Source of the DNA: Escherichia phage 241
Sequence record: OR924452
Length of the DNA: 64,000 bases
Reading direction: 5' to 3' (one strand)
In this document: piece after piece, positions 52,459 to 58,880 of the stretch
How the letters are laid out: every line of letters starts with the position of its first letter
How positions within the stretch are numbered: the first letter of the stretch is position 1
Notes under the pieces: generated by a model
What the model saw: the letters and a program-made list of their open reading frames with translations, nothing else
What the model was told of the DNA's origin: nothing
Databases searched by the model: none
Translations under genes and position numbers: made by a program

Positions 52459-53268
52459 TTACACCACAGCCAGTTCACAACGGGCGGAAGTTACAGAATG
52501 GCCGTCCGCGTCTTCTACAACACACCAGTACTCACCCTCAGAAGCAGCGGTGACAGCGTGGTTGACCAGAGACGCAGTCGCTGCTGTTGGGTTAACACCA
52601 GCATCAATCACCACACCTTCGCCGCCAGGGGTGTCAGAGTAATACCACACATAAGAGTACGGCGCGGTGCCGCCAGCAGCAACGATAGTGAATGTCGCAT
52701 CAGCGCCGTCGGCCACGTCCTGAGAAGCAGCCAGATCGGTTGTCAACGACAACAACCCTGCGACGGTAATGACGGTGGAATCGGTGTGATTTCCTTCTAC
52801 AGTAACACCATAAACTGTAACAGAACCAGACTGAAGCAGTTTGAATTTACCACCGCCGATATGAATCGCCTTCGTCAGGTCGCCAGAATACCAGTTAACC
52901 CCTTGATATGTTGCGTTCGCAGGGGCAACAGTGGCCAGCAATTCAACGATTTGGCCTATTTCCCCGCTGGCAGTAGCCGGAGTAATGGCCAGACCCGTGG
53001 TCAGAACAGCAGTCGGATCATGGATTTCATAAGAAACCTGGAAACCTACTGGCTTGGTCGGATCAACTTTGGTGACACCGTCCGCTTGCAGATTGCTTTT
53101 GGTCAGCAATGCATCAAGACCTTTACATTCGGTCAAGATTTCATCAGGATCTTGATTTAGGCTGGTTTTTTGCCAACCCTTTGCAACACCCGTCACGACA
53201 TGATTGCGTTCGGTTTCCGGTTTGTTGCGGACAACTTCCGGCGCGACTAATACTGTGATTGTTGGCAT
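52459..53268 (-). CDS. Ig-like domain protein, possibly capsid decoration (Hoc-like)
   Basis: Repeated beta-sandwich modules; C-terminal EGEYWCVVEDADGHSVTSARCELAV is a classic Ig-like signature. Confidence 0.5.
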   Translation of the reverse strand: MPTITVLVAPEVVRNKPETERNHVVTGVAKGWQKTSLNQDPDEILTECKGLDALLTKSNLQADGVTKVDPTKPVGFQVSYEIHDPTAVLTTGLAITPATASGEIGQIVELLATVAPANATYQGVNWYSGDLTKAIHIGGGKFKLLQSGSVTVYGVTVEGNHTDSTVITVAGLLSLTTDLAASQDVADGADATFTIVAAGGTAPYSYVWYYSDTPGGEGVVIDAGVNPTAATASLVNHAVTAASEGEYWCVVEDADGHSVTSARCELAVV

Positions 53269-53639
53269 GGTTTCCTCCACTCATCCAAATCGTTGTTCAG
53301 AGCCATCATCAGCTCGTTATCTGGTTCGTATGAACCGGAACATAAATCATCTCTCCAAACTCCTAACGTCAACAGCGCTGCCTTTAGACGAGGATGTTGG
53401 TTCTTATCCGTTTTCAACACCAGCATTCGACACACAGCTTCAGTTTCGAAAGTATTGAAAAGAATAATCAATTGATTGATAAGCACACGAGGACTTTTCC
53501 CTGGCACAAATCTCTTCAATGATTGATTAATTAGCGAAATTCGCTGAATGTCTACCATCAAATCATCCCGTGAGACACCAGCAGTGATATAGTGTCTCAG
53601 GGCATATTCCATCAAATTGCTTTCGTCAACGATAGCCAT
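53247..53639 (-). CDS. hypothetical protein (130 aa)
   Basis: ORF. Confidence 0.4.
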   Translation of the reverse strand: MAIVDESNLMEYALRHYITAGVSRDDLMVDIQRISLINQSLKRFVPGKSPRVLINQLIILFNTFETEAVCRMLVLKTDKNQHPRLKAALLTLGVWRDDLCSGSYEPDNELMMALNNDLDEWRKPCQQSQY

Positions 53640-53671: not shown

Positions 53672-54085
53672 TTATTTAATCTGGAGTTTTTCAGTCAATT
53701 GAGCAATAATTTCATTCCGGTCGGTAGAAACAATTCCCAAAGGTTCGGCCAATGTTTTAAGATCATTGATGTCAAGCAAGAGAAGGACTTCAACCGTAAT
53801 ATCGGTGGATACCACAGTGCCTGGTTTCATAGGCTTACCGAACTTGTCTAGCCCATATCGACGTAAAGTACCCGCCAGCCCCGTAAGTTCCGCGAGAAGC
53901 TCCTTCGTGCCGTCTTTGTATTCACAGACCCAACCGTAGTCACCAGCATAAACGACGCCACCGTCGCCCCCCTGAGGGATGTTATCCACCACACGCTGGA
54001 GATAACTTGGGAGTTTGTTTTCTTCCTGGGCGGTGATTTCCTGGGAAGTTTGGGTATTTTCAATTTTCTTTGGTGTCTTCGCCAT
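53672..54085 (-). CDS. hypothetical protein (137 aa)
   Basis: AGGAGA RBS before internal ATG at 54085. Confidence 0.4.
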   Translation of the reverse strand: MAKTPKKIENTQTSQEITAQEENKLPSYLQRVVDNIPQGGDGGVVYAGDYGWVCEYKDGTKELLAELTGLAGTLRRYGLDKFGKPMKPGTVVSTDITVEVLLLLDINDLKTLAEPLGIVSTDRNEIIAQLTEKLQIK

Positions 54086-54359
54086 GATCAGTTCTCCTAT
54101 AGACTGTAATGTATTTACCACAGCAATTGCAGCAATAAACGTGCATGGAATATCCGTCGTCATTGAAATCACACCCACCACAACGACAGAACAATTTCAC
54201 AAACTGGTCACCACTGACTTCTCTTGGAGGAAAATTCTTAAACGAGTATTCTCTGAGTTCACCCTCAAATTGGAATGAATCAACAAGGAACTTTGTTTTT
54301 CGGCGCAGTGATCCAAATGCCTGTTGCTCATACACGAAGTAAACATCTCTGGTTTCCAT
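54060..54359 (-). CDS. small Cys-rich protein (99 aa)
   Basis: CRCGGCDF...CCNCCGKY. Confidence 0.4.
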   Translation of the reverse strand: METRDVYFVYEQQAFGSLRRKTKFLVDSFQFEGELREYSFKNFPPREVSGDQFVKLFCRCGGCDFNDDGYSMHVYCCNCCGKYITVYRRTDHGEDTKEN

Positions 54360-54412: not shown

Positions 54413-55996
54413 TTACTTGTACAGACCGTCAACGTCAATAGATTTATGTTGGCGGTTGTATTCCGTGGTGTAGTCATCCAACACGAGGTATTCACAGCAG
54501 CGGATTTTACTAGAACCGTAATCATCAGTGATAGACACGATGTCTTTCGGGTTCAGCTTACAACGCACAACCCGCTGGCCCAGGCTACCGAAACATTGTT
54601 TCAGATACGCCAGAGAACAAACGTGAAGACCATAGGAGCACAGGTCTTTGTTGTTATCGTTCACGAATGAGCGAGCCATCCGGACGATAGTGCCAGGTGC
54701 GTTGCTGACTTTACCTGTGCGCTTATCCATATAATTTCCGCGAACGGATTTGTATAGAATAATGTCGCCGTCTTCATGAATCTCAATGTCTGAGTATGCC
54801 ATGAATTCATAGATCCGACCAGACTGAACCAGCGCGGCGCTCGGGTTTTGGAACATCTTGTCAAGGAAACGGCCCAAGCGTTCCAAGTTCGGATAATCGC
54901 CTTTTAATGCCAAAGCCAAAATGCGTTTGGCAACGGAAGTTCCGGTGATATCATAGCCACCCCAGCGAACACGGTTGTCTGAAAGATCAACCATGCCTGT
55001 AGTGAATTGTTTGATGGCTTCACGCGGTTTCATCAGAGTGTAAGCTGTTTTGACGTCACGATTTTTAATCGCTTCAACAATACGGTCATACGCCTGGTGG
55101 CTCGTTGTGATCGTTTCCGGTTTACCATCGACCACAATCACGATACTTTCCGGCAAAATCATGATCTGGTGTTCGTTCAGGAACACAGACAGTTCTTTTT
55201 CATTAAATGAATTCTGAGTTTGCTTGTCGCCTGTTTCTTCAACAACTGCAACCGTCTTGACCACGAATAATACGGATGACAATGCCAGACGAAGTGTACG
55301 GCCTAAAATTGCATCAAAGTAACCCACGCGCCGACGGGCATCAAGGGAACCGCGCATCGGATATGTTTCACCGTCATGCTGTACGCTGATTTTCACACCA
55401 TCATTGACTTTAACCACGCCATCAACCAATGCAGTAGCCAGTTCTGCTAACGGCGAAATATTTTCTTCATTGAAGCGGCTTGACCGAGTTTCTAACGGTT
55501 TCAGTTCTTCGCTTCTGAAAAGTTTGGCCTGAATAGCAGCAGAGCTATCATAACGCATACAGATAAACACTGTTTGGTTTTCCAGGAAACGGCCAACATA
55601 CCATTCTTCGCCTTCAGAATCGACAGACACCGAACCTTCCAGAACTTCATAGGTGTCGGGGATTTTGCCTTCTTCAGTCAATTCTTTAATTGGCGAAATC
55701 ACGACCACGTTATTAGATTCTTTGATGATACGAACCATCAGGGCGCGGGCAATTGTTTTGGCACTGACACCATAAACTGATGCCAGAGAAGAATTGCTTT
55801 CACCTTTGCTGCTCTTGGTTTGTATTTCTTGAATCTGTTCGGTGGTCAGAGACTTAATCGAAGCCGGATCCACTCCCAGTTCTTTATCCGACACGCGTTG
55901 TATCATTGAGCGCGGTACGCCCAATTCACTGGCTATTGAACTTTGACTTCTGTTCTCATTCAACAGCTTGAGAATACGTTTTTCTATAGCATTCAT
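54413..55996 (-). CDS. rIIB: rIIB-like protein with extended N-terminal region
   Basis: C-terminus CSYGLHVCSLAYLKQCFGSLGQRVVRCKLNPKDIVSI parallels T4 rIIB CSRGLHVCSKSYIRHFGSSTDRVVKVKVHPRDVVSI; N-terminal HTH-like segment; 527 aa vs 312 in T4. Confidence 0.8.
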   Translation of the reverse strand: MNAIEKRILKLLNENRSQSSIASELGVPRSMIQRVSDKELGVDPASIKSLTTEQIQEIQTKSSKGESNSSLASVYGVSAKTIARALMVRIIKESNNVVVISPIKELTEEGKIPDTYEVLEGSVSVDSEGEEWYVGRFLENQTVFICMRYDSSAAIQAKLFRSEELKPLETRSSRFNEENISPLAELATALVDGVVKVNDGVKISVQHDGETYPMRGSLDARRRVGYFDAILGRTLRLALSSVLFVVKTVAVVEETGDKQTQNSFNEKELSVFLNEHQIMILPESIVIVVDGKPETITTSHQAYDRIVEAIKNRDVKTAYTLMKPREAIKQFTTGMVDLSDNRVRWGGYDITGTSVAKRILALALKGDYPNLERLGRFLDKMFQNPSAALVQSGRIYEFMAYSDIEIHEDGDIILYKSVRGNYMDKRTGKVSNAPGTIVRMARSFVNDNNKDLCSYGLHVCSLAYLKQCFGSLGQRVVRCKLNPKDIVSITDDYGSSKIRCCEYLVLDDYTTEYNRQHKSIDVDGLYK

Positions 55997-56028
55997 CTTG
56001 TAGTTCTCACTGTGGGGTAATGGGGCTA

Positions 56029-58770
56029 TTATGCCCCGAGAATACGTTTTGAAATAGCCTTCACAAATCTAGTGGCATCTTCAATCGCATTATGCGCCGT
56101 TGGCTGATATTTTGACATCATGAATTTCACCAAACGATGACATTCAACTCGGTATCGGTTTTTGGCCTTTTGCTTTTGAGATATAGTGCTAGTGACCTTT
56201 ATCTCATCAAATCCTTCAGCAGTTAATTTTTCATTCAATAAATCAACAACTTGAGTTAACTGGTTACAGGCGCGGAAAAATCTCGTAGTTGAGAAAGGCA
56301 TTTCTATACGATAATGTAATTCCTCAACAGCCTTGCGGAAATAACCATACCCCGATCCAGACGGGTTTCGTTTGGCCAGCATACGAACAACCTTCCATTC
56401 TTCTTCAGTGATTTGTTGTTTCGCATAACCGATGATTGCTTTTGCCCTGTGTTGATGATGAGCATAGCCATCCGTAACTTCTCCATGGGAATCAATCAAC
56501 AGCTTGGCACCATAATCAATGCGATGAGACATGATGTTTATGCCCTTGCGAAGTTTCAGGAGTTTCTTAGATTCAAGCGCCTGAAATTCATCTTTATAAT
56601 GCTCAAGCAACATATCAAACACTGCGTCAATGGGGATGAATACTTCTGGGAATTTCTTCATCATCGGAACAGATTTACGACGCGCAAGAACGATTGTTGG
56701 ATGCGCTCCCAGCAAATCAAACATGTTTTCGTTTCCATTCTCGCCGAACTTCGTTCTTTCCATCGCTTCACGCAAATGTCCAGCCGTGGATTGTCGTAAG
56801 GTATTACCATGAATTTTATGGATACCTTCTCGGCCAGATACTTCGATATATACGATCTTTTTGCCTGAATCAATAATATCTGAAACGGTTTTTCCATCTA
56901 ATTCATAAACGCTGTCGAAGTTAAATGAATTGTAATAGAAACTAAACATCCCAGGATCTTTTTCAACGGTCGGACGAACATATTCCATTTCGTGCATGAA
57001 ATAGACTTCATCCGGATTGAATAAATCGCCAAAAACCTCGATCAGTTTATCGGCAAAGACCAGGTAGTCCGGCGTTGTTTCTTGTACACCGATCCATGAT
57101 TCAAAATAAGACTTCAATTCCTCATGGTTGGTAAATGATTCTTTATGTGCCGCCAGCTGATTCCGATTACTGAAATAATTTTCATTTGGTTTGACGACGA
57201 TAACGACATTGAAGTTATTGCGTGCTGTTTGTATCTTCAGGTTTCGAGCACGATTCGAGTTATCAATAATAACAGCAATTTTTGATTTAGATTTCAACCA
57301 ATTTCCGACAGAGTTCACATAAATGCTGTCGTGTACTACACCGTCGTCGTGTACTTCAATTTCGTAAGGACTACCAATAGACCGGAAAGGTGCATCCACA
57401 GAGTAATCGCGCACGACGTCCGGCGCTCCGATATAACGGAACGTGCCTTTGTAGAAACGGTTATCTGCAGGAAATTCTCGCTCCACTAATTTACGGAAAC
57501 CACTACCGAACATATCGGTCAATTGAGCCTTCTTCATATAAAGCATAAGAGGACCCATAGATTCGGCCTGGCGAAGTTCATACATCTTCGCCTGCATAAT
57601 ATTGTCAGCCACATATTTGAACACTCGGTTCAGGCTTTCACGGGTGAACTCGTCATATGACAAGTCTTCACGCGATGGAGGAACATTCAATTCTCCAAGT
57701 TCAAAGAATGTATAAGAACTCGGGAATTTCTCCAGCACCGAACGTATTTCAGAATCCAATTGCTCAAGATCTATCGGATAAGAAACCCCGCCCATAACAG
57801 CATAGTGGGTATTATCAGAATCAGACTTCGGCTGAATATACGTGTTGCCCACACGGTTTTCAAAATTGATGTCCTGCCAGCGGAAAGAATAACTGGCATT
57901 TTCAACCTTCGGGCGCATTGATGGGCGCATAACTCGACCCAGACGGACCAGTTCTTGTTCAAATGCGGTAAATCGCTGATTCTTTACAGGCACTTTAACA
58001 GTCAGACCATTGAACTCATCAGTGTCTTCTGGTTTCGGATCACGGGTATCCAAATCCTTGGTGATCAGGTCCACAGTAGGAATCCTGTCCGCATTCAGAT
58101 ACATAAGAAAGCGATACAGTTTACCTTCATAACGACTTTCTACAGTAAATGAGTCCGACACTGCAAACGGGGATTTGGAACCCAGACCAAACGCGCCGAT
58201 CTGTCCGTCGTCGTCCTCTTTGGTGCTATGGAAGAGTGTGGTGTACAAACCAGGTCCACGGATGATCTCGCCATCCTCAGCGCGGAATACCAACACCCCA
58301 TTGTAATAACCAGGCGTCCCAATAACAGCAGTGCTGTCAGGGATTTCATCTTCCTTCACAACAATGTTGCCTTCGACAAGCACTTCATCTTCCCGCGCTG
58401 CGATAGGTTCCCCGATAATCATTTCTAACGGAAGGCCAATCCCATAATCCTTGATTTCCAACCATGGTTCCATAACATCAGGTAAATGGACCACAACGGG
58501 CGTCCCTTTGGGAGCAAGATGCTTGCTGTATCTTTGGGGCATAGGGGTAAGAGGGGCATAATGGGACGGCAACCAACGCTGTTGGCGATCACGCATATTA
58601 TGCGAGTCTATACCGTTACATAACGTCTCACGCAAAGATGCGGCCTCTTTATATTTGTAGAGACTTGAGAACAATGTTTCAAATAATTTATCCGTCATCT
58701 TGACATTAAATGTCTGTCCGACGATAGTGGAAGAAGAGCGCACGAAATGCTCGGACTTGCGCATTTTCAT
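56029..58770 (-). CDS. rIIA: rIIA-like protein (GHKL-type ATPase N-terminus)
   Basis: [29 protein letters not shown] and [26 protein letters not shown] parallel T4 rIIA [29 protein letters not shown] and [26 protein letters not shown]; 913 aa vs 725 in T4. Confidence 0.85.
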   Translation of the reverse strand: [913 protein letters not shown]

Positions 58771-58848: not shown

Positions 58849-58852
58849 AAAA

Positions 58853-58870
58853 AGCCTCCAAAAGGAGGCT
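58853..58870. terminator. rho-independent terminator
   Basis: AGCCTCCAAAAGGAGGCT hairpin flanked by A/T tracts. Confidence 0.55.
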
Positions 58871-58880
58871 TTAATCAGGT

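Follow-up and report, generated by a model that had tools for sequence, protein, structure and literature searches.

Escherichia phage 241 carries, at positions 54,413 to 58,770 of the 64,000-nucleotide stretch of its DNA that was analysed here (sequence record OR924452; the whole stretch is called the window below), a pair of genes encoding relatives of the rIIA and rIIB proteins of phage T4. This pair is an ordinary feature, already known and already annotated, and its architecture is typical of its family. We are confident that the pair represents the usual rIIA-rIIB module of Vi01-like Kutterviruses, orthologous to gp1 and gp2 of Salmonella phage Vi01, and that its long form is just one among the many architectures commonly met in this protein family. 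The initial annotation, made from the sequence alone, had drawn attention to an enlarged pair, with 527 amino acids (aa) in rIIB and 913 aa in rIIA, as compared to 312 and 725 aa in T4. Its coordinates and lengths are exact, but the enlargement is not noteworthy, as the same length is common to the Ackermannviridae, and lengths run from 209 to 659 aa among 150 representative proteins with an rIIB core and from 632 to 980 aa among rIIA homologues. T4 falls toward the lower end of the size range in an rII family that varies greatly and in which long proteins are common, and the size excess over T4 is fully accounted for by accessory pieces, all of which are conserved across the phage family.

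The identity of the locus is evident at the level of both DNA and protein. The 4.36-kb locus is 99.2-99.4% identical in nucleotide sequence to those of Escherichia phage Sa157lw, Salmonella phage Vi01 and many other Kutterviruses (Ackermannviridae). Its DNA is matched by 236 phage records, 162 of which cover at least 80% of the locus, and most of the matching records already have rIIA and rIIB annotated. The rIIA protein is 99% identical to the annotated rIIA of Vi01 and Sa157lw, rIIB has the same protein sequence as its counterpart in Salmonella phage PS5 (100% identity), and 278 phage records encode a protein that spans 80% or more of the window rIIB. Both proteins match PHROG families end to end: residues 1-527 of rIIB align with positions 1-530 of phrog_3803 ("RIIB lysis inhibitor", 530 positions), and residues 1-913 of rIIA with positions 1-917 of phrog_3661 ("RIIA lysis inhibitor", 917 positions). 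The core genome of the Ackermannviridae includes Vi01 gp1 and gp2, which are these genes (PMC10892097), and the same PHROGs in Kutterviruses have been discussed as likely having an anti-Rex function (PMC9409062). When the window pair is set beside Vi01 gp1 (RIIA) and gp2 (RIIB) and their Kuttervirus and Ackermannviridae orthologues, protein identity is 97-100%, lengths, order and spacing are equal, and there is no difference of note. As a discovery the locus therefore matters little, the genes being annotated in hundreds of genomes and having PHROG families of their own; the value of the present analysis is descriptive, in that it locates the extra residues.

Domain layout of rIIB and rIIA

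The two genes and their parts are as follows, with the supporting evidence in parentheses (HTH, helix-turn-helix; ORF, open reading frame; AF2, AlphaFold2 model).

54413..55996, minus strand: rIIB gene, 527 aa (ORF in the window list; PHROG 3803 end to end; identity to PS5 rIIB)
55859..55996, minus strand: rIIB HTH1, residues 1-46, an extra HTH copy (Pfam, hhalign to HTH2, AF2)
55736..55858, minus strand: rIIB HTH2, residues 47-87, counterpart of the T4 N-terminal HTH (Pfam, hhalign to T4)
55145..55735, minus strand: rIIB middle region, residues 88-284, mostly inserted relative to T4 (AF2, alignments)
54416..55144, minus strand: rIIB conserved core, residues 285-527 (T4 alignment, HMMER clusters, signature)
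56029..58770, minus strand: rIIA gene, 913 aa (ORF in the window list; PHROG 3661 end to end; identity to Vi01 and Sa157lw)
57529..58740, minus strand: rIIA residues 11-414, the part alignable to T4, a predicted GHKL ATPase and the domain that follows it (hhalign, BLASTP, motifs, Foldseek)
58495..58578, minus strand: rIIA insert 1, residues 65-92, a loop that joins the N-box helix to the G1-box strand
58255..58410, minus strand: rIIA insert 2, residues 121-172, a predicted beta-hairpin subdomain that occupies the ATP-lid position, with the G1 box on one side and the G2 box on the other
56032..57528, minus strand: rIIA residues 415-913, the C-terminal half, which is variable and is modelled as alpha/beta domains and then a helical bundle (AF2)

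As in T4, rIIB lies directly downstream of rIIA on the same strand. The initial annotation had both proteins aligning to their T4 counterparts in conserved blocks, and this was borne out. Residues 285-513 of rIIB align with T4 rIIB 88-311 at 35% identity (BLASTP, expect value (E) 1e-42), and a profile alignment of the core to the same T4 residues has 100% probability and an E of 4e-53 (hhalign). For rIIA, residues 15-404 align with T4 rIIA 9-315 by BLASTP (E 2e-24) and residues 11-414 with T4 rIIA 10-323 by hhalign (100% probability, E 1e-48), while the T4-type PHROG 612 matches with an E of 1e-79, its profile reaching residue 738. The homologous parts are the rIIB core with one HTH, and the rIIA GHKL ATPase with the domain that follows; overall identity to T4 is only 23-35%. 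A domain-level alignment places the extra residues in HTH1 (~46 aa) and an insert of ~175 aa in rIIB, and in rIIA in two loops of the ATP-binding domain, with ~19 and ~51 extra residues, and in a C-terminal half that is ~100 aa longer and cannot be aligned. Structure prediction suggests that these extra regions fold, with the exception of the loop that forms rIIA insert 1.

An added HTH-like region at the N-terminus of rIIB had also been proposed, and this stands in part: HTH motifs are present and there is one extra copy, but T4 rIIB has a homologous HTH of its own. Pfam HTH_38 matches the N-terminus in two stretches with 32.7 bits against a cutoff of 27, covering residues 47-85 in HTH2, and CENP-B_N reaches 23.5 against a cutoff of 21.2. 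In HTH1, residues 7-39 are matched by CENP-B_N, HTH_28 and HTH_23. The two units are related to each other (hhalign, 95.6% probability, E 1e-8), and on this evidence HTH1 is a diverged duplicate of HTH2. Residues 47-90, containing HTH2, align with T4 rIIB 4-45 at 41% identity (hhalign, 96.5% probability, E 9e-10), and an HTH2 profile finds residues 4-55 of T4 rIIB (hmmsearch, E 6.5e-6) along with several other rIIB lineages. Several Pfam HTH families match T4 rIIB at residues 7-50, all below threshold; in the T4-like representative P0180 (320 aa), HTH matches rise above threshold.

The rIIB core carries the signature CSYGLHVC at residues 453-460 (window 54617..54640), equivalent to T4 rIIB residues 252-259 and shared with T4 in the form CSxGLHVC. 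The pattern C[ST]xGLH[VF]C is kept in 20 of 22 sampled proteins (the window rIIB, T4 rIIB and 20 homologues), its residues are invariant in the rIIB homologue alignment, and a further conserved cysteine usually follows ~40 residues downstream. This signature could serve in metal binding or in catalysis. Pfam PF26926 is present, as a precomputed annotation, on all of the rIIB homologues, and a search of the PDB gave no significant sequence match between rIIB and a solved structure. Within the family, mean identity to the window protein is 64% for HTH1, 58% for HTH2 and 28-43% for the beta modules of the middle region, as compared to 61% for the N-terminal and 84% for the C-terminal part of the core. 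The rIIB extras are thus maintained, yet they evolve faster than the core.

By inspection of sequences and alignments, residues ~103-277 of the window rIIB correspond to T4 rIIB ~65-76. The insert of ~175 aa sits between the hairpin that follows the HTH units and the core, and the 215-residue excess of rIIB over T4 is explained by the 46 residues of HTH1 and a net ~165 residues of insert. The AF2 model of rIIB, made from a 32-sequence alignment, has a mean predicted local distance difference test (pLDDT) score of 82 and a predicted template modelling score (pTM) of 0.73. It begins with two three-helix units and a hairpin (88-102), followed by a beta module at ~123-160 (within a region of ~105-160), a helix (177-192), a second beta module of five strands (201-248) and finally the mixed alpha/beta core. 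The middle region has a pLDDT mostly of 76-92.

A possible SH3-like fold for the insert is suggested by the model. The only recurrent fold matches of the rIIB model in the PDB are tandem Agenet, Tudor and KOW barrels (Foldseek, E of at least 2e-3, template modelling (TM) scores of at most 0.31); their probability is up to 0.99 over 140-200 aligned columns, with a root-mean-square deviation of ~15 Å and no query ranges reported. The likeness to such tandem SH3-like barrels consists of these weak fold matches and the five short strands of the second module, and there is no sequence similarity between the barrels and the rIIB middle region in Pfam or in a PDB profile search. Neither Pfam, nor the PDB profile search, nor the other rIIB lineages yielded relatives of the middle region outside the close family. 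We considered whether it might be a mobile domain also found in other proteins, but a local profile search gave nothing below an E of 0.06 in other rIIB lineages; a database profile search, word-indexed and so of limited reach, returned only two fragments from the same family. An internal duplication was likewise rejected, since the two beta modules are unrelated to each other (hhalign E 0.28). Residues 234-252, the sole stretch over the Kyte-Doolittle threshold (1.86), were rejected as a membrane helix, as they are predicted to be beta strands and are not hydrophobic in homologues.

On the evidence of its motifs and predicted fold, rIIA is a GHKL-type ATPase in which the N-box, G1 and G2 ATP-binding motifs are intact, and ATP hydrolysis is predicted. 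Ten GHKL residues (R47, E48, N52, D55, D108, G110, G192, G195, G197 and K199) are invariant in 46 rIIA homologues. The AF2 model has a mean pLDDT of 85 and a pTM of 0.57; its best fold matches are full-length members of the Hsp90 family (Hsp90, HtpG and TRAP1; Foldseek, E 7e-10 to 1e-8 over 580-800 columns), followed by the ATPase regions of GyrB, ParE and MutL. The predicted likeness to Hsp90 and GyrB extends across the N-terminal and middle domains. With Hsp90, GyrB and MutL, all GHKL/GHL ATPases, rIIA shares the predicted fold and the three motifs, but its C-terminal half is unrelated to theirs and the TM-scores are low (0.15-0.26 on the query). Membership of the Hsp90 family was considered and rejected: rIIA has no Pfam family at an E of 1 or less and no PDB sequence match, and the likeness is one of fold only. 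There is a weak NCBIfam sacsin ATP-binding match at residues 178-210, T4 rIIA has only a sub-threshold match to HATPase_c_3 in Pfam, and PADLOC and NCBIfam scans of the pair gave only sub-threshold noise.

Two inserts interrupt the ATP-binding domain of rIIA, and both are common to one group of Vibrio phages. Insert 1 has 28 aa in the window protein, where typical rIIAs have 9 aa and the Vibrio-phage relatives 34-39 aa; it is absent from T4 in the profile alignment and is modelled with low to medium pLDDT and no secondary structure. Insert 2 is 52 aa long, against 1 aa in typical rIIAs and 44-46 aa in the Vibrio-phage group. It falls in a gap of the T4 sequence, has a mean identity of 64% within the family, and is predicted to form four strands (pLDDT 83-89). 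Most of the remaining excess of rIIA over T4 is in the longer C-terminal half (residues 415-913), which has no significant alignment to T4 rIIA 324-725 by BLASTP or hhalign. This half is the least conserved part of the protein (20-38% identity within the family) and is modelled with a pLDDT of ~85-94; a variable C-terminal domain matches the published description of rIIA (PMC7824862).

Length and architecture across phages

The initial annotation had itself allowed that the extra length might be common to many T4-like phages, and this largely proved to be the case, as the lengths of both proteins vary widely across phages. When the rIIB core was used in a full HMMER scan, 7,234 representative clusters matched at an E of 1e-3 or less, and the breakdown of lengths and architectures given here refers to the best 150 of these. 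The median length of the rIIB-core proteins is 374 aa, and 28 of the 150 have at least 500 aa. The core is preceded by at least 250 residues in 27 proteins, as it is in the window rIIB, by 130-250 in 26 and by a T4-like 70-130 in 21; in the other 71 whose layout was classed, the core is at the start and is often followed by a C-terminal extension. In the viral model library, structural relatives of rIIB have 265-644 aa, apart from a fusion protein of 1049 aa in Escherichia phage RB43, and those from T4-like Aeromonas phages have 411-432 aa.

The HTH2-type unit recurs in several settings. It is single and N-terminal in T4 and in P0180. In P0169 and P0171-P0174 it comes after ~60 residues with a second, weaker HTH-like match, confirmed by Pfam in P0173, and is followed by a long middle region. 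Behind HTH-like N-termini, it is found at ~135-192 in P0192 and 150-184 in P0264, as judged by eye and weakly by profile. The order is permuted in P0044 and P0046, where the rIIB core is N-terminal and the HTH2-type unit C-terminal (437-477 and 396-436, respectively; hmmsearch E ~1e-3). From this distribution of sequence matches, the HTH appears to be an old and movable unit that is the ancestral partner of the rIIB core, which makes T4 a poor yardstick for the normal size of rII proteins.

It could be argued from the same data that the long form is not an enlargement, a long-linker rIIB with several HTH units being ancestral or widespread and the T4-type protein a trimmed derivative. We give this possibility some weight, short of thinking it likely. 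The median length quoted above and the 53 of 150 proteins with at least 130 residues before the core are in its favor, as are the other lineages with HTH-like sequence before the HTH2-type unit (P0169 and P0171-P0174, and more weakly P0192 and P0264). The middle regions of the long lineages, however, have no detectable sequence similarity to each other, a pattern that fits independent insertions better.

Two of the representatives have a domain between the N-terminal region and the core that is an unexpected partner for rIIB. In P0176 (504 aa), residues 150-216 are an apparent acyl-carrier-protein domain (Pfam PP-binding, E 1.2e-12), and such a domain was also seen before the core in P0185 (492 aa), judged by eye only.

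Proposed function of the module

The rIIA and rIIB genes are presumably co-transcribed and their products likely act together. The gap from the rIIA stop to the rIIB start is just 32 nt, and a terminator scan of the locus found no terminator-like site between the two genes. Elsewhere the two proteins occur as natural fusions, which support their joint action. The RB43 protein mentioned above (BFVD Q56C47), from a T4-like phage, is such a RIIA-RIIB fusion, and phrog_609 (1055 positions) matches both window proteins. These fusions contain the rIIA ATPase and the rIIB core, in contrast to the two separate genes of the window, and the phrog_609 profile passes over the middle insert that rIIB has in the window. 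The RB43 fusion mirrors the classical T4 r1589 fusion mutant.

The module probably protects the infected cell, early in infection, from prophage-encoded abortive infection of the Rex type, by analogy with T4 and phages of four other genera. Knock-down of rII in T4, MM02, EdH4, SUSP1 and N4 sensitizes each phage to lambda RexAB, with modules that share less than 40% identity (PMC11879866). We would expect the activity to be carried by the C-terminal core of rIIB together with the rIIA ATPase. N4-type rIIB shares with the window rIIB only residues 395-516, the C-terminal part of the core, a hint that the activity of rIIB resides in the core. The HTH units may tether rIIB to DNA, DNA binding being predicted, and the inserted modules would then be lineage-specific accessories. 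As RexA is a DNA-binding protein (PMC11077077), competition between rII and RexA on DNA is conceivable, but this is speculation.

Several points weigh against this account of the locus. We found no functional test of rII in Ackermannviridae in the literature searched, and the anti-Rex role is assigned by analogy; even for T4, published accounts give no biochemical mechanism for rII (PMC11879866; 10.1101/2023.05.28.542683). DNA binding by the rIIB HTH units and ATP hydrolysis by rIIA are predictions. The pTM of the rIIA model leaves the packing of its domains uncertain, and the fold assigned to the rIIB insert is weak, given the E values, the low TM-scores and the lack of query ranges in the Foldseek matches.

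A different emphasis would make rIIB mainly a DNA-binding regulator, that is, a transcription factor whose tandem HTH units recognize a bipartite site, with anti-exclusion lying downstream of gene regulation. Iyer and Aravind class the T4 rIIB orthologues as specific transcription factors (PMC7824862), RexA binds DNA itself, and the rIIB core is almost always accompanied by an HTH, which can be N-terminal, duplicated, triplicated or C-terminal. Yet 71 of the 150 representatives start at the core with no N-terminal extension, and it is the core, not the HTH, that is the most conserved part. In T4, moreover, the classical r1589 deletion takes away the beginning of rIIB, and B function is nevertheless retained. 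On balance we consider a mainly regulatory role somewhat unlikely.

The initial annotation had suggested that the extra domains could change how the system interacts with prophage-encoded exclusion. In this form of the idea, the additional HTH and the beta modules in rIIB, together with the inserts in rIIA, would retarget the module to counter or evade exclusion systems other than those met by T4 rII. The extras are predicted to fold and are conserved in a family that diverges to ~40% identity, so that they are under selection; insert 2 of rIIA is at the GHKL ATP-lid position, where it could change regulation; and RIIB can itself act as the trigger sensed by other defence systems, which would provide a selective reason for surface variation (10.1101/2023.05.28.542683). 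Against this, rII modules that differ in architecture and share less than 40% identity are all effective against lambda RexAB (PMC11879866), N4-type rIIB has in common with the window protein only the stretch of core given above, and the ATPase and core are the most conserved parts, the extras less so. Retargeting is therefore, in our judgment, unlikely. A narrower version, in which the parts specific to Ackermannviridae (the second HTH, the two beta modules, possibly SH3- or Tudor-like, and the 52-aa hairpin of rIIA) are a lineage adaptation that gives a different specificity, we hold to be more doubtful still. Such parts could tether the rII module to the phage's own DNA, or they could let it act against, or escape from, defences other than lambda-type Rex. 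Phages of the Vi01 type have modified thymidine, and the idea of a connection with hypermodified DNA depends on that background. Whichever role the accessory parts have, HTH1, rIIB 103-277 and rIIA 121-172 are defined segments that could serve as deletion targets in work on the rII mechanism.

Reading frames and neighboring genes

That the extra length might come from a mis-called start, or from two genes fused by a sequencing error, has virtually nothing to recommend it and was rejected: no support was found beyond a split rIIB in one record, which shows that annotation differences do occur, and against it are N-termini of both proteins that remain conserved from Met1 onward even in homologues with as little as 33-40% identity, equal ORF lengths in hundreds of independent genomes, PHROG matches that run end to end, and confident full-length AF2 models. 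The window rIIA aligns with its T4 counterpart from residue 11-15 onward, and both starts are sound.

The split record is that of Salmonella phage 38, a close relative (91-99% identity), in which rIIB is present as two ORFs (BFVD A0A0N7C9T3, 290 aa, and A0A0N7C9T1, 147 aa). A frameshift, an error in sequencing or a genuine division of the gene could each account for this.

Upstream of the pair, one further feature was located.

58851..58872, minus strand: strong terminator-like hairpin of nine pairs followed by a T-run, which closes the gene upstream of rIIA, just before rIIA

A promoter scan at the locus gave counts equal to the shuffled expectation, and the single site by rIIA overlaps the rIIA start codon; we therefore claim no promoter here.

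Directly 3' of rIIB is an ORF of 99 aa (54060..54359, minus strand), which is rich in cysteine (CRCGGC...CCNCCGKY), suggesting a small zinc-ribbon-like protein. It is annotated as hypothetical in Sa157lw and overlaps the next ORF (53672..54181) in the long version of the latter, which starts with GTG. Farther along, an ORF of 273 aa (52459..53280, minus strand) is annotated as "phage tail fiber protein" in Sa157lw and in Vi01 (gp3). It looks like a series of tandem Ig-like repeats, and it sits in an early-gene region, which is an odd place for a tail fiber gene.

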